Shown here: piece by piece, positions 29,851-64,000 of the stretch
How the letters are laid out: every line of letters begins with the position of its first letter
Numbering within the stretch: position 1 is the first letter of the stretch
Assembly: GCA_010093605.1 (NCBI GenBank)
Contig: MU004183.1
Span: 372,001 to 436,000 of the forward strand
Direction of reading: 5' to 3'
Length of the DNA: 64,000 nt
Source of the DNA: Lophium mytilinum
Lineage: Eukaryota
Notes under the pieces: model-generated
Database searches by the model: none
Told to the model about the DNA's origin: nothing
Seen by the model: the letters and a program-made list of their open reading frames with translations, nothing else
Program-made: the position numbers and the translations under genes

Positions 29851-31603
29851 TCATGAATAGCGCCGTGTCAACCGCACCCGAACGTCCGCCACTGGAGACC
29901 TTGACGCGCCCGCCAAACCCATCGCCGGAATCTCAAGAACATCGCTGCCATCTGCCGGCCTCAGATCCCACATCATCAAGATACTCGCCGCGAATATCAG
30001 CACCTCCTTCTCAGCGAAGTAACGCCCTTTGCACTTATACAAGCCCCCTCCGAATGTATGCAGATTCTTCATAACGACGCGGACAGGTTCGTCTTTGCCA
30101 TCCCCCTCGATGAAGCGTCCCGGTCGAAATTTTTCAGGCTCTTCGAAGATCCGTGGATCCTGCTGCATCGTCCCGTTGGCGAGGACGAGCGAGCTTCCAG
30201 CGGGAATACGATAGGACTGCGGCTTCTTCTTGCCGAACATAGCTGCATCCTCGGCCGACTCCGTCACAACGAGGTCCTTGTTGACCTGTCTGATGCCCAA
30301 TCCTGACATGTTCATCCTCATCGTCTCATAGAAGGACGCCTTGATCAACGGACAATACTTGCAAAGTCCATCGACATCGATGTCCAACTTCGGTAATCCA
30401 TTCGCTCCACACTCGCCAGTCGACGACGTTTTGACATACGCGGCGAGTTCTTTCCGGATATCAGAGAGCAGCTCCCTCTGCGCGTATATCTGCATCAGCA
30501 TCCAGAAGATATTCTTGTTCGAGTTGACGTTCACGCCCCACAACACCGAGACGTCGTTCGTCGTCTGTAGTTTCGTAGACGCCTTGCTGTCGACCCAAGT
30601 CTTCACCCGCAGCCGCATCACCTCCGACACATCGTCCAAGTCCTGATACTCCGGGCCCGGATCCTGCCCCCGCTGGACCGCAGCCACAGCAGCATGCCAC
30701 CCATCCATCGCCATCACAAGCGCCCGCCGCGCCTCTTTCGCCCGTCGCCCCGCCGCGGTGAACGCCCCGAGCGACGACACAAGATGATGCACCCCCTCAT
30801 CAAAATCCCAAAGATCCTTCTGCAGCTCGGGGTTATTCTTAATCAACGCCTCCCCATACAGCATATCAATAACCACCTGGCCCACATAGTTAACCACCAG
30901 CCCGTAAAAATTCGCATCCGCGCTCCCATCCTCGTTATACGTCACACCTCCCGCTTTCTCCCACGCCTGTTCACTCCCTTTCGACGTAACCAAACTCCCG
31001 CTTTTCAGCTCCACCGCCCGCGCCGTCTTCCCCGTCGCCTCGGTCACGAAGTCGTCTTTCAGCATTAGGTTTAGAGCTTTGTGGCTCTCGTGAAACGCGG
31101 CATGCTCGGTGCGCGCAGCATTGCCGTCGCCGAACGCCACGCGCATGAACCAATACAGAATCTTCTCTTTCGAGAGCACCGCGGCTTTTTGCGCGAAGAC
31201 TTGGCGGACTAGCGAGGGCATGTTGATCACGTAGTAGGTTGAGGGGCCGAGGCGGTAGGAGATGAGGCCGTCGCCGCTGGAGTCGCTGTTGAGGGGGTGT
31301 GTGAGTGGGGGTTTGGATAGGGGGTCAAGGAGGGGAGGGGGGTTACCGGTCTTTTGCGAGCGTGCCTTCGACATCGCGGGCGAAGGAGATGGCGGAGCCG
31401 ACGAAGGGGATCCAGTAGGGGATGCGGATGGGGGTTTTGAGGGGAAGGTCGGTTTGGGTAAGGGCGTGGCGGCGTTGGAGCTCCGTGAGGGCGCGGGTGA
31501 GGAGGGTGATTGCAAGGAGGGTGGTTAGGATGGTGAGGGTTGGGGAGGTTGTGATTAGGTGGATTATGGCAGGCGGGAGGTGGTATGAGTGGAGGAAGCC
31601 CAT
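29851..31603 (-). CDS. Cytochrome P450 (CYP7/CYP8-like clan), one intron
   Basis: N-terminal TM anchor followed by IPYWIPFVGSA, ETMR (ExxR), PEKFRPGRF and heme motif FGGGLYKCKG; I-helix VNVNSN lacks the usual acid-Thr pair. Confidence 0.93.
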
Positions 31604-32709
31604 TTTTAGGATTCAGAGATAAAAGATGCTGAATGTAGAGAAAGAGAAGAAAGTGGAGTACCGAGTTCTTCGTGTTTGAGAATGTTGACAGGAATTAGTT
31701 CGTGTATGCGAACAATTATCGGCAATAGCCAGAAGATGAGAAAGAACGAAGAAAGTAATACAGAAACGGTCGCAATACAGGAAGCAAATGGAAATCCAAC
31801 CCAAAGAACACCATTCGCCCAATCCCTTCAGCCCATAAGCCCAAAGCCATGTGCGATGCTCGCAAATCCCACATCCTATTCTCGGCTCTGCGCAATCATC
31901 CAAGCCTCTTCCATGTGTAATACCCAATAGATAAGCCCTACCCGTCGAGGCTATGTACATGTACACTCTGTACCACAAGACACCAACCAATAACACAGAG
32001 CTGACTCAAGTGCAACTATTCCGGCCCCAAAACTAAACTGGGAAAAGAGATCCTGTGATACCCCAAGGGCGGCTGGGCGGAATAGCCCCGCGGCTGCTCT
32101 GCTTCAGCTGGTGGTAAATATAACCCGCTAGGTTACAAGCGTGGTCCCGGCAGCGTGGCTGACGTGGAGGGTGAGATGCAGGGATTGTTCAGCCTCACCG
32201 ATCGCCCCGTGGATGATGTTAAGCATCGAGAACATCCCTGGAAGCATGGATTGCCGGTCTGGATCTGGGTGACGGGCGGATGCTAAGGCTGAATCATGGT
32301 GATGAGATGACTGGTGGTGTCGTTGTTTAGGGCTGAAGTGGAGGTGGGGCTCCCCTACGTAGTGTTGCGTCCAAAAGCCAGCTCTAGATTCTGGTCTTTC
32401 GTCATTCGGTGCTCATTTTAAAGGTTTTGCTTAGATCATTTTGTGCATGCGGTGTCCAGCGATTTTATCTTGAAGTCAGTCGTTTCGAGTTCGCATTGAT
32501 GATAGTCTACGTAAAATGATGTGGATATATCCGGTCCCAAAGTACCTTAAGTGAACGCCTCTCCCATCCTCGCAATGCAGTCTTGTCTGAAAAACGATCT
32601 ACCAATCAATATATATAAGTGAACAGAAATAATGCACGAAATTGAACGAAACGCAAAAGTAGCAATTGCAAATCCGAGGAGCGCTCCAGGCGTCTCATTG
32701 CATACCATC

Positions 32710-34677
32710 TCATCCCAAACATAGAAGCCGATCAGTCCGGATCGCATGCGCACTGCTATCAGGCTCTAACATCTCATCCCACCAGCCCTCATGACGGTGC
32801 ACCTCGGTGTTCTGGCGCGCAAGCCAGCTGCGCAGACCAGAAACGCGGCGGAGGACTGCTGGAAGCGTGCTTTTGTCTCCTTCGCGAATCGGTACAACGC
32901 GTTGGTACAGTCTGTCCCGTTTGTCGGCGTTACATGTTAAACAGGCTATCCAGAGTGGCCAGATGGGGTAGATCGCTGTGTATAGCGGGCCGGTGACTGG
33001 TAGGGAGAGTATTAGAGAGATGAGGGCATCGGAGAGCTCGGCGACTGCGGGATGGAAGCGAGTATAGCTATGTTCATGCGATTAGTGGTTGAATCATGAG
33101 AATTATATAGACTGAAATTACCCGTATAGTCGGCACCTGAGATAGATTTGTGCTGCAAGCCGGTATGTTTCCGCTGTAGCAAGTACGATTTCATGCGCTG
33201 ATCCTGTCACCTCTGTCGTCCATTGCCGTAGAGCCTGGAGCTGCGCGTCTTGCATTTGCGCGTAAGACAGTTTGTGGGCCATTATGGAGCTACTTTTGTC
33301 CGCCGAAAGAGCGGTGATGGACGATATAAGGAACAGAAGTTGCGGTGAGAGGCCGAGTACTCCATTGATGCATTGCGCCTCGTTTTGCGGAATCATATCG
33401 TACCATTCCGCAGTTTCTAGTGAGTGAAGCTTGGTATTTCGTAATTGAGCGCCCGTTTGCGAAGTCCGCGCAAGTATCAGCTGGTATCTTATGAATGATG
33501 CGGCATCGCAGAGCGGATTGATTTGATTCGGCGGGATCGTGTCGAAGATACTGGCATGGACAGACCAACACATATTCGACTCATCCACGTTGTTGACTGC
33601 ATCGTGGTGTAGTAGTAGCATGCTGGTAGCCAAGCATGCATCGAAGGAGTCGCCGGCGGTAATCTGTCGAGCTAACGACTGCAATGCCTCCGTCATGTAA
33701 AATAGATGGGCTTGATGATAACGCTCCTTTTCCGCATGGACATAATCTTCAATGTATGAGGCGCTCAGACTTAGTAAAGCGAATCTGGTGCTTGGGCAGG
33801 TGTCTGCAATTCGTAGCAGGGTAATGTATGCATTCGACTTTGTTATGGGGGTGCGTCCAGGGCAAATGCCATTGATGTCTACCTTGGTCAGTTAACTTGG
33901 AATGAGCTGTGGGAGCTTATCGCACTTACAGAAGTCAATGAGCAGATGCTCCATATCATTCTTCCATAAATTCGAAGAAGAACTCGGCAGGAACTTGATT
34001 AGTCCTATCCCGAAAGCCGTCGATTCTGGCTCAGAAACAGGAACGGGGATGCTGATGGGCGCCTTGCCCGGCGAAGGCATATGACGCATGGGAGTAGGCG
34101 ATCTACTCATCGACATCCTCAAGAGCTCGTTGTCTGATCTTGGTGACTCCGCTACCAAGTTTAGCCTCTTGGGCCCAATAGAGCCATTGACCGCATTGCG
34201 AAAGCGGAGGCCGTTGGTGAAAGAATACTCACTTTTGATATCCGATCCATCCGATAGCTCAACTAAGAAATCTTGACAGGCATCTGATTTCGACTTTTGT
34301 ATGTGCCTAATGCGTTGCACGACGATTGCCACGGCCCGTTGGTCCTGGACCAGAGATATGTACGATGACTGATTCTCCAGCCCGGCCTTGAATCTTTCGA
34401 ATTGCTTCCCGTTCAGCTCACCCAATCTCCAGAACAACTGACCCAGGACTTCGAGGAGAATCACCGCAGGCCCTTTTTGGACCATCCATTGACGCACAAC
34501 CAATAAGTTCCGTCGAGTGTTCCTTTGGTTTGCCTCGGTGGGTAGATCGACAACCCTTGCCAGTAGCCGGTCGATATGCGCATAGTCTAAGTTGGTGAAA
34601 TCGGGCGATACGGAAAGATGTTGCATGGCATCGTTAGCAGCTTCGAGCGCCTTGTTGAGCTTCCGGTCTACGTCCAT
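32710..34677 (-). CDS. Fungal-specific transcription factor domain protein (Fungal_trans_2/DUF3468-like), no Zn2Cys6 seen
   Basis: Three exons; LATSMLLLHHD, GVLGLSPQLLFLISSIT, AETYRLAAQIYLRCRL and YPIWPLWIA; ends LLCLG-stop at 32710. Confidence 0.75.
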
Positions 34678-36161: not shown

Positions 36162-37209
36162 ATGGACCAATCAAGCGCCATGGCCGAGCACATCATGGAA
36201 GCCTCTGGCCTGACCCTCCACTTCAGCCCTGCTCAAATCTTCCTCGGACTAGCAATGTTAACTATCATCCTTCTGAGTAACGGCAAAAGTCTCCTCTTCA
36301 TGTGGCACGTAAATCTAACCCCGTTCACACTTCCCTCCCCCCCTTTTCTAACACTTCCTAGGTACGACTCGTCCTTCAGCTATCACGGCATCTCCTATTC
36401 CGCCGCCGCTCTTTGACCATATCCTCCGCCTCCCACGGCGCCGAGTCCCTCTTCCTCCCCGTCCTCACTTCCTCCTACACACGTAAGCATCACTGCCCCC
36501 AATACAATCACAAACAACGAACACTAACCCCACCAAAGCGCTCCTAGACGTCGACTACAACCTCCACAAATCCAACTCCACCTTCTTCAACGACCTCGAC
36601 GACAACAGAACCGAGCTCATGCTCGCCCTCTTCAAGAACGTCATGGCGCCCCAAAAACAGGGGAAGAGCACTTTGAAACCCAAAACCATCAACCTCGGCG
36701 GCACCGCCTGCATCTTCAAGAAGCCTATCGCGCCCTTTGCCCGCTACGAAATCTCCTCGCGCGTGCTGTGCTGGGATCAGAAGTGGATCTATGTCGTGAG
36801 CCACTTCACGAAGCCTGGCGCGAATAAGCCGACGGCGTTTGTGCTAGGCTCACAGACGCCGAGTTCGCAGATGGCGAGGGTGGTGGGGAAGGCGGATGAG
36901 GCGAGCGAGGAGGGGGTGTATGCGTCGGCGATTGCGAAGTATGTTTTCAAAGCGGGCAGGGTGACGGTTGCGCCGGAGGAGGTGATTGCGGAGTGTGGGC
37001 TGTTTCCAGAGAAAACCTTCACTCAGCAGGGGGGGCGTGCTGAAAGGGGGGGTTTGAAGCCAAGGGAAGTGAGCCAGGGCCATTGGTCTTGGGAACGGGT
37101 TCAGGAGGAGTGTCGGAGGAACTTGCCGCTCGCGCAGAACTTTGCGAATTTGGATCAGCTGCATGGCACGAGGTTTGGGGGGTCGGGTCCAGCTTTGTAT
37201 GCTTATTGA
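36162..37209 (+). CDS. Hot-dog-fold thioesterase (LcsJ/AtnL/THEM6-like family), 2 introns
   Basis: Signature DYNLHKSNSTFFNDLD plus FKKPIAPFARYEISSRVLCWDQKWIYVVSHF and AIAKYVFK; N-terminal hydrophobic segment. Confidence 0.82.
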
Positions 37210-37929
37210 GCTATGTGCTTGTCATTATTGGGCATCTAGGGCAAGTCACGTTCTATGTCCTTCGCGTTAATGCATAGATAGAACGTCTATGTGATCAGTT
37301 CCTGAGCAACAGAACGATGAGCGGCTTGCATGTTACTGCGCTGTAATACGGTTATAAGTCATAATAAATAAATGTACAATAGTATAGAGTACTGATCGCA
37401 GGTTGGGAGTTTGAGACTTCGACTGAGTCGGTTTTAGGTAGGGGTAGGAGAACTGCGCTGAGCTATAAAAAGCTGCACAGCCACTATTCTTTCTAGCGTC
37501 TGAATACGCTTAACGCGAAACAAACCCACTAACAGCAAAGACAAACGAGAAGGATCATACACCGTCCTCTTCGTTAAGGGAGGGTTAGCCACCACTCCCG
37601 TGCGCGGATTTTCCAATAACTCCCACATCTACAAAATTGACGCGTATAGAGTGCTGGATACATCATGAAGTCGATTTAGTCAATTATGAGGAGTGCGGAA
37701 GTTTGTTGTACATATGATGAGCCCATGAAGAAGGGAGCGGTTATAACTACAGAGGAGTGCGGGATCTTGGGGGCGCGGAGCATGGCAGGTGGTAACGAAC
37801 ATAATAGGATTTAACAACAAATAGAGAAATCATATTCTAACGCTAACTTCTAACGCTAATTTCGAGTTGATGCCCAAATGGTCAGCCAAAACACCATAGC
37901 CGTCTAAGACTCCTCCGTATCCATGATAG

Positions 37930-40995: not shown

Positions 40996-41225
40996 CAGTG
41001 CCTCGTCATAGAAATCCGTACACTGGTTTGCCGCCGCACGGCGAGTCTCATAGGGTTATGAGTGTTTTGGGTAAGAGAGAAGTTCGACATTTGCTACTAC
41101 AGGTAAACTCAAGGGGCTACTCCAAACGGTGTGAACTTGGTGTACCCAAATTTAAATCCGTCTTGTACGTGGGAGCCCCTTAAATAGTGCTAGGGAAGTA
41201 TACGCATATCTATGGCAAGGCACTG
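40996..41225. mobile_element. MITE (Tc1/mariner-like), copy A, 230 bp
   Basis: Ends CAGTG...CACTG; terminal inverted repeats match at 24/29 positions; right flank TA, left flank TC; interior homologous to the reverse complement of the copy at 62745-63006. Confidence 0.8.
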
Positions 41226-41310
41226 TACACAAGCAGAAGAAACACTCTGAAAAATCAACCTTGTAATTGTTGGCCATACCGACAGGAGACTTTGATATCT
41301 ACTCGGGCTC

Positions 41311-45476: not shown

Positions 45477-48400
45477 CTACAGCGATTTCTTTCCTCCAAC
45501 CCCCTCAAGCCTCACCCTGCCCAACTGCGTATGTGCATCTGTCGCACTCGTCCACGTGGCCAACCTCCCCAATCTCCCACCTACCGCAATCGCGGGCACT
45601 GGCGCCTCCGGTTCCCAATCATCCAGCACCTTCTTCAGTCGCTCGCTCCCCGTCGCCGCATACGCGTACTCAAACGCCTCTTTTGTCAGTTCAAATGGCC
45701 GGGCGGTGACATTCGGTACATAGCGGCCGATCAGCTTCTCCGGGTCGAGCTTGTTGGCAATGATATTCGCCTCTAAAACCTCGCGGAAGGCGGAGAGATT
45801 GGGGCGGAGGAAGGAGCTGTGGAAGGGGACGTCGATGCCGGTAAGCGGGATGGTGGCCTTGCCTCGTGCTAAAGCGGCGACGGGAGGTCCGGAGGTGATC
45901 TCCGCGACATGTGTATCGATGAGAGAGGAGATGGATGCAGCATCATGCTTAGCTTTCGTGGAGGCAGCGAGGGTGTCCAAGACGGTAGTTAAGAGGTGGA
46001 GATTTGTTAGCGTGCCCGCGCAGACGTACTGGCGCTGAGCGACGTTGTAGTTTACGATCTCGAGCAGCGATCCAGTTGTCTTGCTGATGCTTGAGACGGT
46101 TGCTTCGAGGTCTTTGATCTCGAAGGATGGAGTAACGCGGCTGGGATCTACGGCCATCATCCCGAACTCCGAGCGACCTTGCTCGTCTCGCTCGACGGCG
46201 ACTTGCATCGATAGCCCGCGGTAGAAGACAATGGAGAGAATCTGCTCTAATGGCATCATATCGGCGATCGCGCAAAGAGCTGCGTACTCGCCAAGAGAGT
46301 GACCGGCGTACATGCTGTTTTGGGCGATGAGACCTCTAGCTGCCATATCCTCGAAGGCAGCCTTTTCCATAACGGTAAGAGCGGGCTGGGCAAATTCAGT
46401 CGAGAAGAGGAGACCACCGGGCGAGCGATAAGTGTAAGATGCACTCCGCTCGTGGATATCGAAGAAACGCTTCGTGGTCTTGTTGCCAGCTTTGTCGTAG
46501 GAATCGTAGGTCATTTTTAAATAATTCTGCCTGATGATTGCGCCGCGGCGGCCACCGAAGTGGACGGTGAGTTGTTTTGGGTTCTTCTTCACGATATCTG
46601 TTAAGCGAAATCCTGATTGCCACGTTAGCACCCGATGGCCGCACAAGAGAATCTCGATGCTTCTTACCATATGTCTCATCGAAATGCTTGTCTGCCCTAT
46701 CCCAGACCGCCCTTGCAACGGGACTGCTCTCGTAAAGATCCATACCCATTCCCATCTCCTGGCTTCCCTGCCCGGTAAAGATATACGCTGTCTCCGATTG
46801 CTCGATCTCGCACTCGCCCACGAAAACCTTTTCTTCCGTATCTACATTCCGCGCTTCGATAGTGATGACCTTGAGGCCCTCAAGCATGGCCACATGCTCG
46901 ATGCTAACCTCAATCTTGTCACCGGGTTGGATCATCCCACTAAATGACGCGCTAAATCGTTTCATAGAGCCGAGATGGACTTCTTCGCTGCTCTCTGCAC
47001 ATCGCATCTCGCAGATGCTGCGAATTATAGCGCTAGTGTGCATGCCATGAGTGATGCAGTTTGGAAGACCGGCGTAGCGGGCGAACGCGGGCGAGACATG
47101 GATCGGGTTGAAGTCTTGGGAGATGCGAGAGTACGCAAGATTGCTTTTTGGGGCGGTGAAGATGAAGCCAGACTCTTCGTGATTGAGAGAATTGGGAGTA
47201 TCTAGAGGTACGCGCTTTTGCACGACCTTGCCGTGGCGGCCGAGGTATCCGAGAACCGGATTGCCGTTGGTGTGAGGAAGGCCAGAAGTAAGCGAATCGT
47301 ACTCCACAATGCCAATTTCTATAGGATCTCTTGAAGATGACGACCTGGCAAAGACTTTTCCAGTGGTCCGGAGGTGACTCGGTGAAGTAAACGTATCAAG
47401 CTCAAAGCTTAGGGTTTTGCCACAGAGAGTCTCCGTGGTATCAGGATGGTAGAATGACATCCAAGCTTTCGACATCAGAAGGTTAACATGGCTGTTTGTG
47501 CTGAGCTCGACTTCTCTTATCTCTTCCTTGATATTTTGAAATTCATCCGAGCGATCGGTATATGTCCCTCGATAGAAGAACTCCGATATGACATCCATCA
47601 CGGGAGCACCATCTCTAGTAATAGTACAACAAACCGAAACAACTTTACCAGTCTCTTGTACTATAATGGCAGTGGTTTTCGCAGAGCTCTCGGTTTTGTC
47701 TCCAATCATTAACGGACCTGCTCCGGGGTAAACACGATACTCGTTGGAAAGATGGACCAGCTTCAACAGATCCCCTTTAACGAAGAGGAGGGACTTCATT
47801 ATGGCTTTCCAACCGATCACGATCGCCAAGTCCATGGGAACCAAAGAATCCCGATCCAATCCTCTCATACCGCCACCAATAGTCTGCAAAAACTTCTCGA
47901 CTAGGCCTTTAGTAATGATGACCTCTTTGGTAATGGCTTCATCTCCTTTACCAAACCAGAGCATGTCATAGAAGCTGCGAATACGCTCTTCGCGACCTTC
48001 TACATCTTCACGTAGCAATGAATGTGGTAGCTCCGGGTGATACCCGAAGTAGAATTCGAGTGGCAATGGTTCGTTCAGCGCGTTCTCGTAGCATAGCATG
48101 CGAAGCGTGATCTTTCCCGATTCGCTGGTAACGATCGATGCATCTGTTTGGCCGTCGTTATTGCTGCTCATAGTGATAGAAATGTCACCTCTTCCGGAGC
48201 CGTTTGTGATGAGCACGGAACAGCCTTTCAAGGGCTTGAATGCTTGACGTATAGGATTGGGAATCACTTCGTCTCCACTCGTGATTGTTGGACTTTTGAA
48301 GACGGCGTATCTCCAGGAGAGCTCTTTACCGGCAAGGATGTTAAACCACGCTTCGGATGATGGGATATTCTGAGCATTGAAAGGGATGCTGTATGCTGTA

Positions 48401-51400
48401 AAGCCTGGCGCCGGGAGGATTTGAATGCCGTCTTCCACTGTAGCTTCGGACGCCTGATGGCCAAAGAATTCAGCAACCGGAATAGCCTGCTGGTCGCCAT
48501 TGTAAAACTCTTCGAGCATGCTCTGGACATGAGCGCTGCTGATCTGGTCTAGAATGGATTTTGCAGATTGATCGATGTTCTCCGGCGTGGCATAGGTCAC
48601 GGAAACGGGTCCTTGAAGGATACAGCATCGCTGTATATCTCCATCAATGACGGCTTCTACGTTCTCGGACTGCCACAGCGAATCCTTTTTGAACCAAGAC
48701 TCGAAATTTGCATCTAACACGGGAATGAATGTGACTGGCTTCTGACCAGATCGTCGACAAATTGATAGAAAATACTCCTGGTCCTCCTGGCTAATGAGCT
48801 GCGTCTTGCTCTCCCCATACGCTTCAACCAGATTTCGCATAGCTTTAACCGGGTCGTTGAAATCATCATAGCTTTGAAAGATAGGCTTGGAAAGCTCTGA
48901 TCGTGACAAGGGTAATCGCTCCTCAATGCGGCGGATGAAGTCTCCCAATATCCTGATATAAGAATCATCGATCCATTGGGAGCTCTTCTTGAGGTACAGC
49001 AAGTCGACCATGCGTCTGGCGACGTCTGAATATGACATGTCTTTGAGCTCTCCAGCTTTGCCGGCATCGAAGTCGTACCCGAACCAAACTTTCTGGAAAT
49101 CTTTGTTGAGGCGCTCAATGATGTAGCTCCGTTGTCGCTTGATCACGGCAAGCTGCTTGCTCTTCTCGAGCGAGAAAATCTTCTTATCCATCTCAGCCCA
49201 CAGCTGTACTCCCCGGGTGGCGATTTTGTGGATAGGCTGTCCCATCTCCGACTGAACAGTAATGATACCTTTACCAGACCGCCAGAATGCATCTTCGACG
49301 CCTTCCGTGGCAGCGATGGCTTGTTTCGCTGCCAGAGAAGTATGCGCCTCTTTTGCAACCATCATTCGACTTCCGAAGAGACAGCCGTCAAAAGGCATAC
49401 GAGATTGCTCGAACTTCTCCGACCAGGATCCTGTCAGATATGGATACGTATCATCGGATCCACCGAAACCGCTGCCGGCAATCAGAATGATGTTGGTGCA
49501 TCGTCTGATACTTGAATATGTTTGCAGCATTGGTGCGTGGAAGTCTTCCGCGGAGTGATGGCCTCCGCCACGGCCGCCGGTCCATTGCAATAGAATAGGG
49601 AACGTAGGATGTGCCTTAGCAATTGTAAGCACCTGCTGGATTGCATCTGCCGAGCCTGGTTTGAAGCCGATATGTTTTAGCCCGAGGTCCTCGATATAAC
49701 CCGTCGCTATTTCAAGTGACGGAACGCCTGCGCCTAGCGTAATGCCTTCAATCAAGTGGCCTTTCTGGACAAGACTTTTGATCAAAGGGATTTGCCATTG
49801 GATAGCTCTTGGTGCTGAGTAAATCAAGTTGATGGTGATTCCTTTCCCAGTTCTAATTGACTTCTCAATGGTAGTTATAGCCTTAATGAGTGATCTTTCG
49901 TTGGGGTGACCTCCGGCAGCGAGCTCGACGTGGTAACCTGCGTTGATGACTGCGGCGACGAAATCGGGGTGTACAGTCGTAGGAGTCATTCCTGCAACCA
50001 TAACTGGCGGCGCGCCTAGGAGCTGGCTCATCTTAGTGCTAACTATCGTCTTCCCCGACGCATCAGAAAGCAAAGAGGGCGCAAAGTCGCGCAGCCAATC
50101 CACGGTCTTTTTTTCAAAGGTTTCAGAGCTTTCAAATAATTCAGCTTTGTAGCCCACGTGCGCAAGCGCACCCTGAAGCGGTCCAGCTAAGATAATTCGT
50201 GTGCCCCGACCCTCTTTCATCCTATGCATGAGAGTTCCGACGCCTGAAGTACCACCAGGGCCGAAATCAATGATATAAGAGCGATTAGGGAATTTGGTTG
50301 CCAATGGCCAATCAACTACCTCAGTGGTGATGGCTCTGGTTAGCATTGGGAGTAAAGCTTCTTCTTCTGCTTCACGGAGATCCCGGCCAGTCTTGCTGTC
50401 ATATACCGGGACCAACAGGTGGCGGGGCATTATTGAGATGTTGTACTTCTTCATGTCTCCTTCAACAGCTAGAGCAGCTTCCGTAAGGTAGGGAGTATGG
50501 AAAGGGCAGGATATTGGTAGGTATCGCGTAGTAAAGAATTTTCCGCTTTGAGGCTGTGTTTTGGACGTCGGTTCTCGAAGCTTTTGGATGAAGGCGGTGA
50601 AATTTCGTAGTGACTCTGGAGCACCGCCGACGACAATATTTGAGGGGCCATTTACTAACGCCATATAGACTTCCTGGTCCCATGCAACGTTCTGGTTGAA
50701 CGACCGGATTTGGGACTCGACTTCCGCTCGAGGAAGATGCAATATATTCATCATAGGCGTGGGGTCATCTTCTGACCGCTCTTCAACCATCTTTTGCCAT
50801 GACGTTTTCCCGGGGAAAGCTTGTTGACTTCGGCAGCCGGTGTAGAACAGTGCTATTAATACGGACTTTGACGCTCCTTGAAAATCTTCGAAGGTTTCGC
50901 ATGTAGCGAGAGCAACCGCTACGATGATTCCCTGACTGTGCCCTGTCAAGCCGTGTAGTTTCTGAACGACCTCTCCCGGGTTAAGCTGCCAAAGCTTGCA
51001 TTTGACATAGAAACTGGCGAGCTGCAGGACGGCGATCAACGGGAAGCTGACGGGTGCCGAGAGCAGGTAATCACGCTCGGGGGTGGTCTCCGGCTTGCGT
51101 AGCCAGGAAAGGAAATCTAAGCCGTGAGGGTATTGGTCGACTGTAGTCTCGTCGCCGAGTACTTTTTCAAAAATCTCCGAGGCAAAGTCCAAAGCTTCGT
51201 CCAGTAGACAGCCGTACGTGCCGTATAGATCCCTCAGCTCATCAAAGTATTGTTGTGTATTCCCTTGCCCTCCGAACACGAAAAAAGTTGAGTTGTCTTC
51301 CGAGAAGATTGGCGGTGGGGCGGCGCCAAAGGGGTGCTCCATAAGCTGCATGCTTTCGTAGTAGGATCTGATGATTTCTCTCTTGCTCGCCGGCTCCGCG

Positions 51401-51764
51401 TCTGGCATCGCAGCGACACATGTGTGAATATTCTCGCCGCGTAAGTAATCATGCTCGAACTGTTCCAGCGCAACCAAGAAAACCTCTCTTGTAGGTGCGT
51501 CGAGTTTCGCAGCCTTTCGACCAGTAATGAATCTCAGGAATTGCGCAAGGAACTGGAAGGTTGAATGAGGCTCCGAGAGCACTCCATCTTCGAAGCTTTG
51601 CAAGAATTCTTCATGTAGGAGATTTGCGAACCCGGTCAAGCCCTCTGGTAAGAAAAACTGGAATTTGTAGGATCCATTTGGGGACTCGAAGAGGCACTTC
51701 TCTGAAGTTGCGAGTTAGTTGACGTAGGCTGAAGCGTGCGGTTTCAATCTTGCAACTTACCCAT
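45477..51764 (-). CDS. Fungal type I fatty acid synthase beta subunit (AT-ER-DH-MPT), secondary-metabolism type
   Basis: FGGQG and GHSQG (AT), VAGMTPTT and GGRGGGHHS (ER), DFNPIH and HGMHTSA (DH), FTGQGSQ, GHSLGEY and DVPFHS (MPT); first coding exon ATG-G, second intron about 46611-46667. Confidence 0.96.
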
Positions 51765-52966
51765 TTCATAGACAGGAAACAAAAAACGGTTAGAAGTAAT
51801 CAATATGTACAGGACAAGGCTCGCTAGACGGTGAAAATGGGGTATCAAAACAGAAAGAGTTTGCACAAAAGGTGGAATGGATGACAGTTGAGATGATGAG
51901 GAGAGCAACGTTGTAGATATTCAAGGTAGATTAATCAGGCACTAGACAGGGCTGATCCCACGCGCTATATCAGGATGCACTTGGAGACGGTGGCACCAGA
52001 GCGAAAAGGCCCATCGCCGCCCAGCTCCGGTGGCTCGCAGTTATGGAGCAGCGCCATGACCCAGTCCAATCAAATGCCGGACGTATTTGGCAACTGCCAT
52101 CTCACACCGACTGCGGATCGGGGCTGTACTTGCGCGATGCTGCTAGATCATGTAGGGAGGTGGCCGGTGGCACGGCTGGAGGAAGGTATTTTGGAAAAGT
52201 GGGGACCCTCAGTCCGGTCAGTATTGTAAATTTGTGTTTTGTAACTAGCGCTGGCGTTCCAGGAGCCAGACGAAGGATTCAGATCCCAGGCGCCATGGGT
52301 CCGATAAGCTCGACGTAGGCGAGAAGCTTGTCCATGCAGCTTATGTCCCAAGTGACAGGGCTGAGCCCAGTGCATGTTCGCTGGCAGCCAATCAGCGTAT
52401 CGTCTGAGCGCCTAGTCGTGACAGCGGCCAGGCTGTGAGGACCGGGCGTTTAGTCGACGTGGTGCATTTTGGGTATGACAAAGTCGAGATCTAATAATAA
52501 TGCTGTCTGACGTGGACGGCATGGGGATGGAGGGGTTGATTTAGATGGGAGGAAATGTACTACTATGATGCGTAGCTTGGAGAACGGTGATCCACGTGAC
52601 TCGAGTGAATGCAGGACTGCAAGAAATGTGTTTGAGAGCTGTAGATAGTGTCAACAGCGGGTAAAGAGTAACTTTAGATAGCAGTGTTACAATAAGCCTT
52701 GCATTCTATCTAGATGCTCTCGGCACTATTTAGGTGCTTTAGACAGCTTTGCAACTAGTCAGAGGTCTTTCTAAGCGTACTCCATCTACGACCTCTTGCA
52801 GTGACTACTTTCGGTCAGTCAATAGATATGAATGCTAGAATCTGTGTTTGTAAATGTGTATAGTGAATATATGTACGCTAGGGTTATACTACAGCGAGAA
52901 ACCACAAATTTCAAATGGCTATGCAATATACGCCCGTAGATGTAGCGCCTCCAAAACCCCAACAAA

Positions 52967-55900
52967 TCACCTCATTGGCGAGATCACCACATTTTCCAAC
53001 AGCGTCAGTACACTCGCATCCCAGCTCTGCGTCTCGCCCTTCTGGATCTGATACAACTCCTTGAATGCGCTCTCCCTAGATAATAGCCTCTGTGGTGAGT
53101 CGTACTCCACCAACTTTCCCCGATTCAATATCGCGACGGCATTAAAATCAATAATAGTGTCCAGCCGATGCGCAGCCGCAATGATAGTGCAGTTCGCAAA
53201 CTCGGTTCGAATGAGTCGCTGCATGAGGGCATCAGTCTTGACATCCACACTCGCAGTTGCCTCGTCAAGGACTAGAATGCTGCCTTTGCGCACCATAGCG
53301 CGAGCAAGGCAGAGGAGCTGGCATTGGCCATGGGAAAGCATGTCGGATGTGAGCTTATCGTCCAGCCAGCTCTCCATGAGGATGTGGCTAAGCTCAACTT
53401 TCTCCAAGGCGGAAACTATTTCTCTGTCGGAGCAGACGTGAAGCGGGTCGACGTTGTCACGGATAGAGCCGGAGAGAACGTAGGGGTCTTGTGGGAGTGC
53501 GATGATGCGGCTGCGGACGTCTTGTCGTGGGAGATCTGATATGTCAACGCCATCAATGAGGATCTTCCCGTGAGAGAGGTCGAGGAGACGAAGAAGGGAG
53601 GCAATCAGGCTGCTTTTCCCACTGCCGCTGCGGCCGCAGAGGGCAATCTTAGTACCTGGGACGATGTTGAGATTGATGTTATCGAGCGTAGGTCGCGAGG
53701 CTCCCTCGTGAGAGGCAGTGATGTTCTGGAATTCGATCGCGCCGTACATTGGCCACTGGTCTGGTGGGCTTTGGTTCTCATGCGGAAGATTCTCGGACTT
53801 AACTTCTTCGGTAAAGCTTCGAACTCTTGCAAGCGCGCCCATTGACGTCTCCAACAATGTCCAGTTGGTGATGAGTTGCTTCAGCATCTGAGAGAAGCCT
53901 ACAAGATTGGCGAGGGCCAGGCCAATGAGACCCGGGTCACTGCTGCCGCCCTTGGTGCTGACAGCAATGATAACTAGAATGACTGCGATCGTGCCCACGA
54001 TCAAATCCAATACCAGGTTCAGCCATCGTTGGATGCAGTAAAGTAAGTAGAAAGGCTTCTGAGACCTTGCGAGCGCTTCCAGGAAGCGGGTAAGATGCTG
54101 TCGCTCCCACTGGTAGGCTCGAATCGTGACGAGGCCACTCAGTAGCTCAAGGAAATGCGTGAAGAGATGTGCCTTGGTTTCAATGTCTAAGAGTCTGAGG
54201 CGTCGGCTAGTCCGGAGGTAGAATTTCTGCACCATGTAGACTACTACGAGGCAGAATGGCATCGCTGCACCGATGTACTTTGAGGCTGTCACGATGACTA
54301 GGAGCTGGGCGATGATAACGAACGCCATCATTGCGGTTCGGACTAAGGAAACAGGTAGCTCCATGTCGATAAGTTCGAGATCTTGGCTAAATCGATTTGT
54401 CGTGACCCCGGTGTCAGTCGCTGCAAAGAAACTCATGGGCGCGTTCAAAACAGTATCCAAAAGCCTTTGATGTAGTTTACGGCCAGATTCCGGAACCATT
54501 TTCATGATGAGGATCGAGCAAGCGAGAACCAGCGAGGAAATCGCCAAAACGCCCAGGAATGCGTAGATGGATAGATAGTACGTGATCCTTTCGTTAGGAT
54601 GCTCGGTGTTGTATTTCGCCCACCATTTCACCCATAAATCTATCAGGGCTTGTTAGTACTGTCTTGAAGATCCGCAGGAACAAAACTTACTTGGAAACGC
54701 CGTCCCGAATCCATAGAGAGCGCAAAAGCAGCAAAAAATAACCCAGCGAGTCCATCCAAACGTTTGAATGTAGTACTTATAGATGGTAAGGTCACCGGCC
54801 GCAGTCGTTTCTTCTACTGTGGTCAATTCCTTCTCCGTTTTCTGGCTTGCTCCGAATCCTCTCAAAGTATCCTTCTTCTCATCCTTTTCTTGCCTATATA
54901 TCGAGTGATCCGACAAAGTAGAACACAAGCTCCTAACGTAGCCGTCGTGAAGATACAGCTCTTCGAAAGTACCTTGCTCTGCGATGCTGCCTTCGGAGTC
55001 AAGAGCAATGATGTGATCAGCTTGGGACAGACGATGCACGGAGTTGGTAACCAAGATGACAGTGGTGTCTGTCTTCCTTAGAAGACCCTTATCGCCTAGA
55101 ATCGATTCGAAGACTTGTTCTTCAGTGGAAGCATCTAGTCCGCTCAATGAGTCGTCAATCATGACGATACTCTTGCGGAAGTAAAGCGCTCTTGCGATGG
55201 TCACACGGGCTTGCTGTCCGCCGGATAACGAGAGACCCTTGCTTCCAACAATTGTATCGTCCCCAAGTGGCATTTGCGAGAGATCGGTCTCAAGATCACA
55301 AGCCTGAAGTACAGTGTTGTACCAGTTCCGGTCGTAGTAGGTATCGTGAATGATATTCTCCTTCACCGTTCCGTTGACCAGCCAAGGGTTTTGAGCACAA
55401 TAGGCTATTTCGTTCGAAAAGGATCGGTAGAAACCTTGCGCTGTAGGCATCTCTCCTAATAGGGCCTTCAATAGAGTTGATTTGCCGCTGCTAACCGGGC
55501 CGACGATCATATTGAGACTTCCTTCTTTGATGGCAAAGTTCAGCCCACGAAGAGATGGCGGCTTGGCTAAGTCCCATCCACAACTAGCGTTATGAGCTAC
55601 GATACAATCTTTTTTGTTCGAAAACGTAGAATTGCTCGAGATACGTGAGAGATTGATGGTGGTTCCATCGATTGATTTCCGGGTTGGGAAAGTATTGAAC
55701 CGTGGGGAAGTAGAAGAGTCCCTTGAAAGCCTCTTTGACAGGGTATTGTAACGTGGAGAAGGGGAAGGGTCTCTTGATATTCTGCCCCTAAACGACTTGA
55801 AGTGTGCCGGCGAAACGCTTCGGGAAACTCGTCCGCGTAATGTAGTTGGCGGAGCAAGGGTATCGTTATCTCTTGATAGTCTAGCATCGAAAGTAGAATA

Positions 55901-57905
55901 TGGTGTAAGGTCTTCATCTTCCTCTCCTTTGAAAGTAGTGTACCGAGAGATACGTGAGAACCCGTCGTCTTCGGAATGGCGCTCATCAACCTCGGGGTGA
56001 TCTAGGAATCTTTTCTCTTCCTCGGCCTCAGCAGCAAAGTCAAACTCTTCAACCGCAGGACCTTTTGTAACTTTGATGGTAGAGCCCCCTGCCTTTTCCT
56101 CAGTGTTGAGATAGATCCGAATCCGCTCGAAGCAACCCATGGCTGTAATGAGTCCTGAGAGGGAGGTGATGAAAAAGGCTACGGGCTCCATAAGAAGTTG
56201 CAGCAACACCAAGGAGGTAAGGGCGCGGGATGTGTCCAAAGGAGCGTAACCTTGGTACTTTGCTAGCATAATGTACGTTCCTAGGGCGAACACAGGGCTC
56301 AACGACGTGCTGGTAAAGGATAGCGCGACGATTCTCACCAACAAGGCACGGAATCGTCTAGAGGTCGTGATTTCCTCTTCACGAAGGTTGCGGACCTGAT
56401 TGGCTAAGTGTGGGGTGAGACCTGTCATCTTGATCCCCTTCATCGCTCCTAACATGGAAGCGGTTGCGTCGATTCTGGTTTGGATACGGTCGAGCCACGC
56501 TTTCTGTGCATTGGCTAGCTTGGGAGAAGCTCCTATTGCGGCGCCGGTGCAAGCAAAGATGACCCCGAGCGGCACTAGGGCCGCCCACCGAATTTGTCTA
56601 TAGAGAAGCCAGACGGAGAGGGCTATTTCGAAAAAACTTGCCCACAGTTCGTGGACCTGTCTGAGCCCAGCTGTGATGCGCTCAACGTCCGCATTCATCA
56701 AAGTTACTGCTTCCGACTCTTTTAGGGCTGATGAGCTGAGTGTCAACGTTTTGCGGTATAGAAGGCCAACCAGAGTACCACGTAGCTTCGCGATGCTGCG
56801 GTAAGTTCGGTGTTGATGAAGACCGCCGGCAGTAGCATAGCCAGAGTAGACAATGACATATGCAGCGATAAGCCCATACCCAACTGCCGTGCGGTTTGCA
56901 TAGTCGTGCTTGATCAAGTAGCTCAGGACACGCTCCAGGAGGAAGGGTTGACTGAAGCTAAACCCAGTAGCACACATTCTGGGTATGATTGCGGATGCAA
57001 AAGTTCGCCAATGATGCCGAAGAGCAATCAAGAACAAGCCATTGGGTCGGGTTTTATAAGGCGCTAGATACGTTAGCGAATGAAGCGGCAAAGAATCCAA
57101 GTTACTTACACGTCTCCCACCTCTCGAATAAACCAAGAAGCTCTTTCTCTCCAACGAGAGCTGGCTGAAGCTCAAAGAGCCCACTCTCTTGCAACGGCGT
57201 CCGGTATCCTCGAAGCAGCATCGGGTTAACCCACCAGAAGGTCAAGCGACTGAAGAAACCACTTGTAGCCTCCGGTGAACTCTCTTTCACTACCAACCAC
57301 GCCTGCTTTCCCTTGAGTTCAAGACCAAGAAGGAAAACCTTGATCAATGTTGCTATCAGAAGCATGATAGCTAGTGGACGAGCCCCATGTGTAGCCCAAA
57401 GTGTTCGGGTTCGAGCTGCATCGAAGACGGCAGAAACGGTAAGGTATGTGGTGATAATAGTCGAAGGCCTGAGGGTCCGATAATGTTCGAAGTGTGAGAC
57501 GAGTCCAAGCATGCCCGTCGCTATGATACTGAAAACTGTGCATGCGACTTTTGCTCTCGTTTTGACGGTCTCGGGCATCGCTATTGCACCTAATGAAATG
57601 AGCTGGACTGCTCCATAGAGCAAGTAGCCAGCCTGGATTGAGTCAGCAAAGCCGATGAAGAGATACTGAAACTCGCATTCTAGGATTCTTACCTGTTTCG
57701 CAAAATGCCATGTTGGTCCACCAGATTTTATGCTGGCCTTGTGTAGTTTGTGGAGCCGCAGGAAGAGAAATGGCAATGCAACGATAAAGGGTATTATAGA
57801 AAGGAAAACCTCCTCAAAGAACAAAGTGAAATCAAACCCGCCATAGCAATGCGGATTGGCAGGGCCGAAGGCGTTCTGGGTATCTATTGAGCATGATGAC
57901 GCCAT
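52967..57905 (-). CDS. ABC transporter, ABCC/MRP type (TMD0-TMD1-NBD1-TMD2-NBD2), 3 introns
   Basis: FDFTLFFEE N-terminus; NBD1 GPVSSGKS/LSGGQ/IDDSLS; NBD2 GRSGSGKS/LSHGQ/LDEATA/AHRL. Confidence 0.96.
55660..55905 (-). repeat. Degenerate 16-17-aa Ser/Arg-rich tandem repeats inside the ABC transporter
   Basis: YSTFDARLSRDNDTLAP / PTTLRGRVSRSVSPAH / FKSFRGRISRDPSPSPR / YNTLSKRLSRDSSTSPR / FNTFPTRKSIDG; coordinates approximate. Confidence 0.65.
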
Positions 57906-60952: not shown

Positions 60953-60993
60953 TGTAAAGTGAATGAGATAAAAGGGAAGTAGATAGGTGTGCT

Positions 60994-61088
60994 AAGGAGA
61001 TGGACTATGAAAGAGAACAGCGCACTGAACCAAGGAGATGGACCGTAAAGTTGAAAGGAGATTGAAATGTGAACGAAGGAGATGGACT
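60994..61088. repeat. Four direct repeats of AAGGAGATGGAC-like motif upstream of the P450
   Basis: AAGGAGATGGAC at 60994, 61032 and 61076; AAGGAGATTGAA at 61055. Confidence 0.7.
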
Positions 61089-62135
61089 AGGAAAGCTTCC
61101 AAATTCTTTGCATCATAATATATATGATCCATCATCTCCGCAGCAACCTAGCACAAGTCACGGACTGCTAGCCTACTGCCTACTCCCCTCAATCTAATCA
61201 TGGGTATTGGTGACTGAGAGAAGGGAAGACTCCGGCTCCTACGGCTCCAGCCTCAGAGACACTGCCGCCTTCCAGCCTCCACTCTCCTGATCAGACAGGC
61301 CATTGAAGACATTTCGGCAATGTCCCGAGGGATTTGTCGACGGACCTGTGCTGCGGTGAGTTCTAAATCAGGTAGTGCTGGTCAGTGGTAGCCCCAGTCG
61401 AGTATAGTGTGCAATGACAGCAGATACATTATGGATGTGATGGCCTGGAACGAGGCCAATGAAGAGACAGGGCTGGGAAGACGATTAATGCGTGCATTGT
61501 CGTTTCATGGAGTCGGTGAGGTAAGCCCGTAAGTTTACAAGACTCTACTGGGCTTAGCGTTGACCACTGGGCAGGACCCTGTGCACAAATACGCGCTATA
61601 TCGGTAGCGGCAAAACCCCTGACAGCGCACGCTCGCGTGGCTCGATCCGCGGGCGGGGTCCCAATCCTCTTCCCACCACCAATGCGGCGTCAGAATTGCC
61701 CCGTCGCTACATGCCCGTCTCACTCAGCCATCCGAGTGCTGAGCCCCGAAGATCAAGCCGCCGCTTCTAGGCCTGTGCTGAAAGCTAAGCTTTCGAAGCG
61801 ACACAGGTCTATCATGCTTCCATTTCGGGGCTGTACCGATCGTTGATGGGTTAGAAACGGGGCGCTACTGTGCTGCGGTCTGCCAGATTTCCAATTTTGT
61901 AAACAGCTCGACGTGAAGCAAGGTGCTTCTTGACTCCAGCCCGAGACTATCATGGTATTACACCAGAGTCGTCAGCTTCCTCATTGATTTGTATCATCTC
62001 CCTTTCCAGTGCCTTCCATTCGTCGCTCTGATACATTACTTCTCCACTCTAACTTTGGGTTGTGCTGAAACCTATATTGTATACTTCTTTCAACATTTCA
62101 TCCTTCATCAAACCACAGAATCTATCTCCGCAAAG

Positions 62136-64000
62136 ATGGACGCCCATTCAAGCCCGTCTAAGCGACAAGAGCTGTGTCACACTCTGCTCATAGAACTCCT
62201 TGCGTTTGTCTATCGTTCCGACTTCCTGCAATGTCTACTAATACGTTAGCCTGTAGACATCAGTTCTGCTCACCTGTGCGATGGACCGAGACGCAGGACC
62301 TGCTTCTGCACGACTTCAAGACCAAGAAGACCGTCGAAATCGGGCCGTCGGACACCCTTACAACGATGATGAAGAGAACTCATGATCTTACGTACCGACC
62401 TTTCGATACCGCCAATTCTGTGTCCCGGAATTTTCTATCGCTCAAACGTAACAAGAAGGACGTCTGTTTTCAAAGGGAGAGAACGGCGAGTCCGGCGAAG
62501 AAGGCGAAAGTGACCAGCACAAAGGCTGTAGTGTCACATCCTACCGTGGACCAGCCCACACCACCTATACCATCAACAGCGCCTGTAGCAGTGGCCGTTG
62601 GTCCCATTGAAGATGCTCCGGTGTCTGCTGTAGATATCATCATAACGATCGTTGCGGTGGCCTTAAAGAAGAGCCCGAAAGATCTTGCTCTTGACAGCTC
62701 TGTTAAGGTTCTTTCTGGAGGTAAGAGCTTGTACTGAGCGCCTACAATGACTTATTATAGAAATCCGTACACCTGTTTACCACTGCTTGGGGAGCTTCAC
62801 GGTATTTTCAACGCTTCGAATACAAGAAAATACAGCAGATACACCTCCAATCTGTGTACACCATTTTGGCACTGTTTGGGGTACCCTCACAGGTTTACCA
62901 GCAGTCCAGGATGCTATTTAATTTCCCTTAATTGGAGCGCTGAAAACATCATGAGGCTCTTCAAGCAGTGGTAAATAAGTTTACAGATATCTATAGCAAG
63001 GCACTGTACAAACTGTTTAACTAACTTCAAACAGGACGGTCTACCCTGCAAAATGAAATTACAGGCGACCTAGACACTGAGTTCGGGTCCGCACCTGATG
63101 GCGCAGAAGATGTTCCTCTAAAGGAGCTCGCCGCCATACTTCAGAAGTCTTTTACCGGGCAGCTAGGACGGCGTACGAAGTCCATGATTGACAAACTTTT
63201 CACCTCTAAGATGCCGGGTGGATTCAACTTAACCAAAGTGCGAAGCATGCTTGAACAAGACTACGGGTTTGGCGCAGGAAGACAGGACTCTATTCTCCTT
63301 TCCTCCCTTCAGGCTCCACCAGCAGTCCGATTTGACTCGGAAGATAAAGCCAGAGAATACTGGTCCAACACTGTTCAACTCTACATATCTGCTGCCGGTA
63401 TTCAAGTTCAAAAGACAACTACATCTTCCGGTGTGACTGGCGCTGCTATCAGCATCGATCCTAAGGCGCTGGAGGCACTGACAAAACGCAATGATAACTT
63501 CAATCGAGATATCTACGAAGCCTATGCTAGACATGTGGGCGATCAATCTGCGTCTAGTTCTGACGAGCTTGCGAAAATCCGGAACGACTTGAAAGACCTC
63601 CAAAGCGAACTTGATCTATGGAATCTGGAGCACGGCAATGAGTATGCGACTGGTATCAAGCCACTATTTGACCGTCGCAAGGCTCGCCAATACGACTCGT
63701 ACTGGAACTGGGCAGTGCAGGACCTCTTCCAAATCTACCACGGCATCCGTCAAGGCAGCCTCCATATTAACGATGAAGACCTGATCCCCCGCCGACAAGC
63801 TTTGCTCAATAAGTCATGCGCGCGTTTGATCTTCGCTCTCAATCATATGTTGGCTGAGATAAAGGCTGAAAAGTCACAGCCAATAGAAGTATCCAATTGG
63901 CTCGCGGAACTTCTCGTGGATTGCAAAAAGGCTCTCCACCGATCACCAGCTTTTGTTGCCTCCGCGAAGCTCACGAAACCGAGAACTACCATCGATGCCG
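62136..64000 (+). CDS. Fungal type I fatty acid synthase alpha subunit (ACP and start of KR region), 3'-truncated by window
   Basis: LLIELLA|HQFCSPVRWTETQD, VEIGPSDTL, ACP motif GG|RSTLQNEITGDL, SKMPGGF, EHGNEYATGI and YDSYWNWAVQD; second intron 62721-63034. Confidence 0.95.
62745..63006. mobile_element. MITE (Tc1/mariner-like), copy B, 262 bp, inside FAS alpha intron 2
   Basis: 45-bp TIRs (62745-62789 and 62962-63006) match at 36/45 positions; TA on both sides (62743-44, 63007-08); no coding capacity. Confidence 0.88.

Follow-up and report, generated by a model that had tools for sequence, protein, structure and literature searches.

A 64,000-nucleotide stretch of the Lophium mytilinum genome (contig MU004183.1 of GenBank assembly GCA_010093605.1, positions 372,001 to 436,000 of the forward strand; hereafter called the window) carries, from position 29,851 to its right end, ten intact genes, each with an open reading frame (ORF; cf. 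Table 1 for their order), among which are those for both subunits of a fatty acid synthase (FAS), two cytochromes P450 (P450a and P450b), a hotdog thioesterase, and a class IV aminotransferase of the branched-chain type (BCAT). The FAS and the BCAT are dedicated paralogs, their linkage is conserved in other fungi, and six of the ten genes are transcribed and spliced. By analogy with routes put forward for other fungal metabolites, we lean toward the view that FAS, thioesterase, P450, and BCAT would together form a cassette for a 2-amino fatty acid.

The fatty acid synthase, its partner aminotransferase, and their genomic setting

The FAS beta exon was 100% identical to an L. mytilinum protein recorded as 'beta subunit of fatty acid synthase' (P0121), whose 2057 amino acids correspond to the spliced model. 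The domains detected on the ORFs and on P0121, i.e., FAS_N, SAT/AT, Fas1 helical (ER region), meander, DH region, insertion, MaoC, and Acyl_transf_1, make up a complete AT-ER-DH-MPT set. FAS alpha is represented in the window by its N-terminus, ACP, and helical domain, and the remainder lies past position 64,000. Among the 120 FAS beta matches listed, 24 were 59-100% identical to the window protein and the other 96 were 43-49% identical. The named hosts of the close matches were Lophium, Glonium, Zopfia, Melanomma, Lophiotrema, Lindgomyces (two copies), Amniculicola, Parastagonospora, Setomelanomma, Aaosphaeria, and Dendryphion, the rest being metagenome proteins. The window FAS beta shared 45% identity with the housekeeping FAS1 of Dothistroma, a fungus of its own class, whereas the housekeeping FAS1 proteins of Dothistroma and Aspergillus, which belong to different classes, shared 74%.

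Of the 120 sequences, 38 were selected for a FastTree phylogeny (five unnamed ones at 47-49% identity, 17 named ones at 43-45%, and 16 of the 24 close ones); the eight close sequences that it omits are mostly shorter or redundant entries. The window protein fell into a clade of 16 sequences (100*) with the branching order Lophium, Glonium, Zopfia, and Pleosporales, and a separate housekeeping clade of 17 sequences (100*) tracked the species tree from the Pezizomycetes to the Dothideomycetes. The root of this tree is not fixed (two long stems meet there); the separation of the two clades is established. Because of the 45% versus 74% identity and the separate 100* clades, FAS beta is to be regarded, on phylogenetic grounds, as a dedicated paralog and not as the housekeeping enzyme. 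An earlier reading of the window, made from its letters alone (the sequence-only reading), had predicted a dedicated FAS, and the tree agrees with it in placing FAS beta apart from housekeeping FAS1. The same reading had noted that the FAS subunits are split by ABC and P450 genes, and indeed FAS beta (minus strand) and FAS alpha (plus strand) have the ABCC transporter and P450b genes between them. That these are ordinary primary-metabolism FAS genes with unrelated neighbors is an explanation to which we give next to no credence, as it conflicts with the identities and the separate starred clade given above, with the lack of an adjacent head-to-head arrangement of the subunits, and with the recurrence of the P450, ABCC, and BCAT arrangement in relatives.

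Ten environmental FAS beta sequences (P0145-P0154) were 47-49% identical to the window protein. The five of them that were placed in the tree formed a starred clade of their own between the cluster clade and the housekeeping clade, and the ten may represent another dedicated FAS family.

The BCAT sequence is on record exactly, as P0535, on the same 2.72-Mb contig as the FAS beta entry P0121. In an IQ-TREE phylogeny of 37 sequences, it fell into a clade of ten (100*, stem 0.64), together with proteins of Zopfia, Lophiotrema, Dendryphion, Aaosphaeria, Paraphoma, Setomelanomma, and Parastagonospora nodorum (SNOG_09093) and two others. A second L. mytilinum BCAT, encoded on another contig (P0052), grouped with those of Lepidopterella and Cenococcum in a 19-sequence clade that tracks the species tree. 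The two clades are distinguished by 28 fixed differences, including a loop that reads VQPGTTYHG in one and VLP(V/T)GVYHG in the other; this loop may correspond to part of the substrate pocket of Escherichia coli IlvE, a correspondence to which little weight was given.

The adjacency of FAS beta and BCAT genes was read from accession numbers and locus tags. They are neighbors in Zopfia (KAF2181849, KAF2181850) and in Pleosporales sp. CAS-2024a (ACEQ8H_002984, ACEQ8H_002985), and near-adjacent in P. nodorum (SNOG_09091, SNOG_09093). In Mytilinidion resinicola, FAS beta (KAF2814019) is followed by a TauD-family dioxygenase (KAF2814020), one unexamined gene, and the BCAT (KAF2814022), which over that stretch is the order of the window. 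Furthermore, one metagenome contig of 21,400 nt carries both proteins (P0122 and P0536). In agreement with the sequence-only reading, which had counted the aminotransferase as part of the cluster, the BCAT is a dedicated paralog, and physical linkage of its gene to that of FAS beta is seen in five or more other fungi or contigs. The M. resinicola models for FAS beta (P0262, 2417 amino acids) and BCAT (P0537, 518 amino acids) exceed the 2057 and 402 amino acids of their Lophium counterparts, and they are probably over-extended or fused gene models.

Metagenome contigs were also scanned with the FAS alpha exon, which yielded 73 pattern matches and six confirmed loci (L001-L006), L001-L004 measuring 9-21 kb. 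Loci L001-L003 have the order ABCC(-), P450b(-), FAS alpha(+), and L004 and L006 the order P450b(-), FAS alpha(+), so that the P450b-FAS alpha pair is found in five of the six; L005 carries a distant FAS (28% identity). Two loci, L001 and L004, extend beyond FAS alpha, and in both the next gene is FAS beta(+). Identity to the window proteins was 57-68% for FAS alpha (L001-L004) and 69-77% for the syntenic P450b (L001-L004 and L006). In the window itself, the block from FAS beta to P450a is inverted and lies on the other side of ABCC. Because of the gene order in the metagenome loci and the linkage of FAS beta with BCAT, we regard ABCC-P450b-FAS alpha-FAS beta-BCAT as the conserved core of the cluster family. 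The family has apparently been inherited vertically across a deep split; few secondary-metabolite clusters of fungi show such a pattern.

A Pfam scan of the cluster half of the window covered 18 long stop-to-stop ORF translations and 24 short ORFs. Thirteen of the 18 long translations matched expected families, namely p450 (twice), Fungal_trans_2, 4HBT_2, Aminotran_4, MFS_1/UNC-93, FAS-beta (eight domains), ABC_membrane/ABC_tran/TMD0_ABC, and Fas_alpha_ACP with FAS_I_H. All ten contiguous genes named in the sequence-only reading are present in the order it gave, all with open frames, and the succession of genes (P450, transcription factor (TF)-domain protein, thioesterase, BCAT, MFS transporter, TauD dioxygenase, FAS beta, ABCC, P450, FAS alpha) is, judged by its gene content, that of a secondary-metabolite cluster. 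Between 1 and 29.1 kb, 14 of the 22 ORFs matched ordinary cellular families (among them SET, aldehyde dehydrogenase, Vps35, Fe-S assembly, kynureninase, DNA polymerase alpha, and RNase_T), in line with the claim that the cluster begins directly after a housekeeping block; because such genes fill the left 29 kb, the left border is considered real.

Transcripts were assessed in a sequencing run (X3) that is recorded only as 'RNA?' and whose spliced contigs indicate RNA, with the DNA run X1 serving as a comparison. Contigs of X3 that are 100% identical to the window skip 13 short stretches, eight of them bounded by CT..AC, four by GT..AG, and one by GG..TA, which resolves to GC-AG; none of these 13 joints appears in X1. 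Spliced transcripts were found in this way for P450a, the TF-domain protein, the thioesterase, the MFS transporter, TauD, and FAS beta. In the bins covering BCAT, the depth in X3 was 0 (37855-38521) and 1.76 (38522-39188), which is not evidence of silence.

The proposed route to a 2-amino fatty acid and competing explanations

In the route that we propose, FAS alpha and FAS beta would build a saturated acyl chain that would leave the synthase as acyl-CoA and be hydrolyzed by the membrane-anchored, THEM6-like hotdog thioesterase. A P450 could then oxidize C-2, and possibly a distal carbon too, to give a 2-oxo acid, which the aminotransferase would convert into a long-chain 2-amino acid. From there, the product would either enter a peptide synthetase whose gene lies beyond the window or leave the cell unchanged through the ABCC and MFS pumps. 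We infer every chemical step, as well as how long the chain is and what becomes of the product. For apicidin F, the report on its cluster proposes the succession of FAS, P450 oxidation to the 2-oxo acid, and the BCAT Apf4 (PMC4109984), and the same FAS-BCAT logic is presumed for aspercryptin (PMC8262921); as far as these accounts go, they bear out the sequence-only reading, which had invoked the FAS-P450-BCAT logic for 2-amino fatty acids. The window brings together a class IV aminotransferase, a P450, and a dedicated FAS, and their linkage is kept in relatives.

The thioesterase scored 34 bits with Pfam 4HBT_2, above the cut-off of 25.5 bits, and its look-alikes in the atlas were 4HBT_2/THEM6-like (score of the first match, 0.95). 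It was matched by 756 library proteins at E<=1e-3, the best being P0383 (62%). A sequence search revealed no relative of it among solved structures, and all 50 fold matches shown were hotdog acyl-CoA thioesterases (e.g., ACOT7, YbaW, EC709, and 4HBT) with middling Z scores of 7.3-8.7. The nearest solved relatives of P450b were CYP3A, CYP4B1, and CYP102, of which CYP4B1 and CYP102 are fatty-acid hydroxylases; those of P450a were weak (CYP11A, CYP8A, and CYP7A, E about 1e-7). These matches fix no substrate for either P450.

Several points weigh against the proposed route: (i) the apicidin and aspercryptin steps used as analogies are themselves only proposals; (ii) the solved structures matched by P450b represent a generic CYP3/4/102 clan, with E values no better than 1e-24, and the regiochemistry of a P450 is not readable from its sequence; (iii) the P0052 clade may not be the primary branched-chain enzyme, and we refrain from calling it 'the' housekeeping enzyme because the BCATs are closer to bacterial IlvE (7lv7, E 4e-59) than to human BCATm (E about 1e-22), the window BCAT being judged a dedicated paralog by its phylogeny and linkage, with no known housekeeping partner; (iv) the sole RNA contig across the first intron of the thioesterase gene removes a 57-nt GC-AG intron (36305-36361), which shifts the frame that starts at the ATG at 36162; and (v) the Pfam scan of the 34 kb (18 + 24 ORFs) revealed no enzyme that would consume an amino acid, be it a nonribosomal peptide synthetase (NRPS), a ligase, or another type, and on the left the cluster is flanked by housekeeping genes. 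With respect to the thioesterase, an alternative 53-nt GT-AG intron that starts four bases downstream (36309-36361) keeps the frame and gives a protein of 312 amino acids colinear with P0383, and the frame-shifting form could be a product of alternative or erroneous splicing, or an assembly choice.

The question of an NRPS leads to two other explanations. It is unlikely, in our estimation, that the two halves of the cluster act separately in a pathway of the lipopeptide type, with FAS providing an acyl tail or starter, BCAT (perhaps with TauD and P450) providing an unrelated non-proteinogenic amino acid, e.g., a hydroxylated or branched one, and an NRPS encoded elsewhere joining them. Such a division would suit the branched-chain substrates that class IV aminotransferases normally take (Pfam Aminotran_4) and the hydroxylation of free amino acids by clavaminate-synthase-like enzymes of the TauD family in bacteria. 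It would also suit P. nodorum, in which a multimodular NRPS with four A domains (SNOG_09081; PMC4205913, Table 3) lies ten gene numbers from the FAS beta SNOG_09091. However, the tight and ancient adjacency of FAS beta and BCAT and the matching shapes of their clades suggest a direct metabolic link, the window encodes neither an acyl-CoA/AMP ligase nor a starter-C-domain enzyme, and TauD is not conserved in the cluster family.

It appears quite improbable that no NRPS takes part at all and that the ABCC-P450-FAS alpha-FAS beta-BCAT core is complete in itself and makes a 2-amino fatty acid, or something simply derived from it, that is pumped out as a free amino lipid. The characterized FAS plus BCAT clusters described in the cited papers all feed an NRPS (PMC8262921, PMC6162547, PMC4109984), the metagenome loci are short, and there is an NRPS nearby in P. 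nodorum; on the other side stand the ABCC exporter that the conserved core brings along and the lack of an NRPS both in the 34 kb of the window, with its housekeeping left flank, and in four metagenome loci over their 9-21 kb. We likewise think it doubtful that a self-sufficient five-gene cassette, vertically inherited since before the split of Mytilinidiales and Pleosporales, releases a long-chain 2-amino acid in free form, or a simple amino lipid, that it has made itself. If this were true, the product would represent an undescribed class of FAS-derived metabolites in fungi and might act as a signal or an antimetabolite.

A supply of a starter or alkyl unit to an outside polyketide synthase (PKS), as by HexA/HexB in aflatoxin and dothistromin formation, or to a citrate synthase, as in alkylcitrates and oryzines, with BCAT being a tailoring or unrelated enzyme, is very improbable. 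FAS pairs are known inside PKS or citrate-synthase clusters (PMC6162547), yet the ORFs scanned between 29 and 64 kb (18 + 24) contained no PKS domain and neither a citrate synthase nor a 2-methylcitrate dehydratase, the marks of alkylcitrate and maleidride clusters, and the partner kept in relatives is the BCAT rather than a PKS or a citrate synthase.

Gene models, a promoter motif, and the dioxygenase

Table 1. Genes of the cluster half of the window, with the evidence for each model (coordinates refer to the window)
Gene	Position	Strand	Model and evidence
P450a, cytochrome P450, 563 aa	29851..31603	-	2 exons, intron 31286-31346 by RNA contig joint; heme motif FGGGLYKCKG; Pfam p450 E 2e-16
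TF-domain protein (Fungal_trans_2)	32710..34677	-	introns 33068-33121 and 33879-33929 by RNA joints; Pfam PF11951 E 5.9e-13; frame open
THEM6-like hotdog (4HBT_2) thioesterase, ~312 aa	36162..37209	+	Pfam 4HBT_2; hydrophobic N-terminal segment
Class IV (branched-chain type) aminotransferase, 402 aa	37930..39138	-	single exon; catalytic-lysine motif GGGKVGGNY; Pfam Aminotran_4, 88 bits
UNC-93-like MFS transporter, 473 aa	41311..42893	-	three introns in the coding sequence; four RNA joints; Pfam UNC-93/MFS_1; spliced frame open
TauD/TfdA-family Fe(II)/2-oxoglutarate dioxygenase, At3g21360 type, 382 aa	43981..45339	+	5 exons by RNA joints plus loose end
FAS beta, 2057 aa, AT-ER-DH-MPT	45477..51769	-	introns about 46613-46667 and about 51697-51759; eight Pfam FAS-beta domains
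ABCC (MRP-type) transporter with TMD0	52967..57905	-	Pfam TMD0_ABC, ABC_membrane x2, ABC_tran x2
P450b, cytochrome P450	59203..60952	-	3 exons; Pfam p450 E 3.7e-65
FAS alpha (N-terminus, ACP, helical domain)	62136..64000	+	runs off window end; Pfam Fas_alpha_ACP and FAS_I_H; start and first intron read

Open spliced frames were obtained for P450a, the TF-domain protein, the MFS transporter, TauD, FAS beta, and ABCC. An apparent in-frame stop of ABCC sits inside a 51-nt intron (54640-54690), and the MFS transcript has an additional intron (43183-43241) in its 5' untranslated region, upstream of the start codon at 42893. The 'TF-domain protein' of the sequence-only reading has a Fungal_trans_2 domain, and a motif scan detected a Zn2Cys6 DNA-binding motif neither in this protein nor in any frame of the 64-kb window. 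A DUF3425 protein is encoded at 3526-4194 (minus strand), at a distance of 25 kb from the cluster and among the housekeeping genes of the left block; this domain is common in fungal bZIP-like regulators of secondary metabolism.

The octamer GTAATACA occurs four times in the 64-kb window, each time in the promoter region of a cluster gene (31755, 39620 on the minus strand, 43864, and 58279), and variants of it are present at 35743 and 61955. Of 300 Markov resamplings, 12.7% produced one such 7-mer or more and 1% produced two or more; the two 7-mers observed overlap. The octamer was not found in the promoter regions of loci L001-L004 and L006. Its significance is modest, and it counts as no more than a weak lead.

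In the 2-kb gap between BCAT and the MFS gene, three short stretches (39942-40038, 40997-41029, and 41191-41229) have raised depth in DNA run X1 and are found on several of its other contigs as well; the bin 39856-40522 had a depth of 236 versus 128. The cluster thus seems to contain small dispersed repeats or remnants of transposons.

At the exon level, TauD gave sub-threshold Pfam hits only, on three of the 24 short ORFs (E 0.009-0.017, below the 27-bit cut-off). The full-length annotated protein (P0534, 382 amino acids, same contig as FAS beta), the length and termini of which equal those of our own spliced model, scored 95.3 bits. Its only sequence matches among solved structures were At3g21360 (1y0z, E 5.5e-33), 9yut, and E. 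coli TauD, and in the alignment with 1y0z, HNE corresponds to HHE and NHAVQHSR to NWAVLHSR, i.e., to the His-x-Glu...His iron ligands. An AlphaFold model (pLDDT 86) superimposed on At3g21360 with a Z score of 36.9 and a root mean square deviation of 2.1 over 317 residues, and other TauD-family structures scored about 20 (generic TauD, AtsK, and AAD, Z 19-20.5; ScoE, Rv0097, MmaE, and SfaA, Z 18.8-19.3). The solved entries 9yut-9yux, described as 'TauD/TfdA-like domain-containing protein', matched the window dioxygenase with E 2.9e-28 and bear possibly on the role of the fungal family. A pairing of TauD with the hotdog protein of the ScoE/Rv0098 type, as for isonitrile lipopeptides, was considered and found unsupported: the specific relative of TauD is At3g21360, ScoE and Rv0097 score as generic TauDs, and the fold matches of the thioesterase are generic acyl-CoA hotdogs.

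Among the 120 TauD matches listed (of 171 at E<=1e-5), the best was that of Mytilinidion (92% identity), which is encoded on the same contig as the FAS beta of that species, and the next ones were 60-66% identical and came from Sordariomycetes and other classes. In an alignment of 40 family members, identity to the window protein was 60-73%, except for the Mytilinidion ortholog at 94%, and the mean column identity was 64%. Tailoring enzymes are usually conserved to a much lesser degree. In Melanomma, Aaosphaeria, Lophiotrema, Amniculicola, and Paraphoma, the contig that carries the TauD member differs in length from the FAS or BCAT contig, the accession numbers being thousands apart in Melanomma and Aaosphaeria, and linkage of TauD to FAS was seen only in Mytilinidiales. 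Because of this wide conservation and the lack of linkage in five Pleosporales species, TauD is probably a passenger or a recent lineage-specific recruit rather than an ancestral member of the pathway, and the dioxygenase, which the sequence-only reading had counted among the pathway enzymes, is not a conserved member of this cluster family.

Comparison with known systems

In fungal histone-deacetylase inhibitors and in lipopeptides, long-chain 2-amino acids act as the warhead or the lipid anchor, and their biosynthesis in fungi is still largely a proposal. As the compact FAS-P450-BCAT set is present in many sequenced Dothideomycetes, including the genetically tractable P. nodorum, the route is directly testable and a new product may be found. 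In the full-text literature, no published characterization of the cluster or of its P. nodorum orthologs was found, apart from the table row on SNOG_09081 (PMC4205913), which accords with the suggestion of the sequence-only reading that the product may be undescribed. The nearest relatives of the window FAS beta and BCAT were, among the matches listed, all from Dothideomycetes.

Compared by gene content, the aspercryptin (atn) cluster of Aspergillus nidulans resembles the window in having dedicated FAS alpha and FAS beta genes and class IV aminotransferases, and it also contains a thioesterase and P450s. An ABC transporter gene, atnG, is described for it as well (PMC6156440), and the products of atnH/batC and atnJ/batD are the presumed makers of 2-aminocaprylic, 2-aminodecanoic, and 2-aminododecanoic acids (PMC8262921). 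In contrast to the window, atn includes an NRPS gene, atnA, and has two BCATs instead of one.

The apicidin clusters (APS/APF) of Fusarium share with the window the route through FAS, P450, and the BCAT Apf4, further oxidation of the chain by a P450, and an MFS exporter (PMC4109984). As described in that report, however, APF has a FAS alpha gene only and comprises a bANK transcription factor, an NRPS, an O-methyltransferase, a P5C reductase, and an FAD monooxygenase, and the ABCC and the hotdog thioesterase of the window do not appear in it. A protein with the source name 'apf4' (P0048, 56% identical) fell outside the clade of the window BCAT.

The HC-toxin cluster TOX2 of Cochliobolus carbonum and Alternaria jesenskae, a Pleosporales cluster, resembles the window in its FAS beta (TOXC), BCAT (TOXF), and MFS transporter; it includes an NRPS and yields a cyclic tetrapeptide with a C10 amino acid (PMC3729494), and, unlike the window, it has no ABCC. 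None of the 120 FAS beta matches listed bore the name TOXC. Two BCATs named 'TOXF' by their sources (P0042 and P0066, 58-59% identical) lay on long branches outside the clade of the window BCAT.

HexA/HexB of the aflatoxin, sterigmatocystin, and dothistromin clusters likewise constitute a specialized alpha/beta FAS pair that is divergent from the housekeeping enzyme (PMC6162547). They hand a hexanoyl starter to a PKS, whereas the window has no PKS and the conserved partner of its FAS is an aminotransferase. The window cluster is an orphan of the known 'dedicated FAS plus aminotransferase' kind, which follows a familiar logic rather than a new principle.

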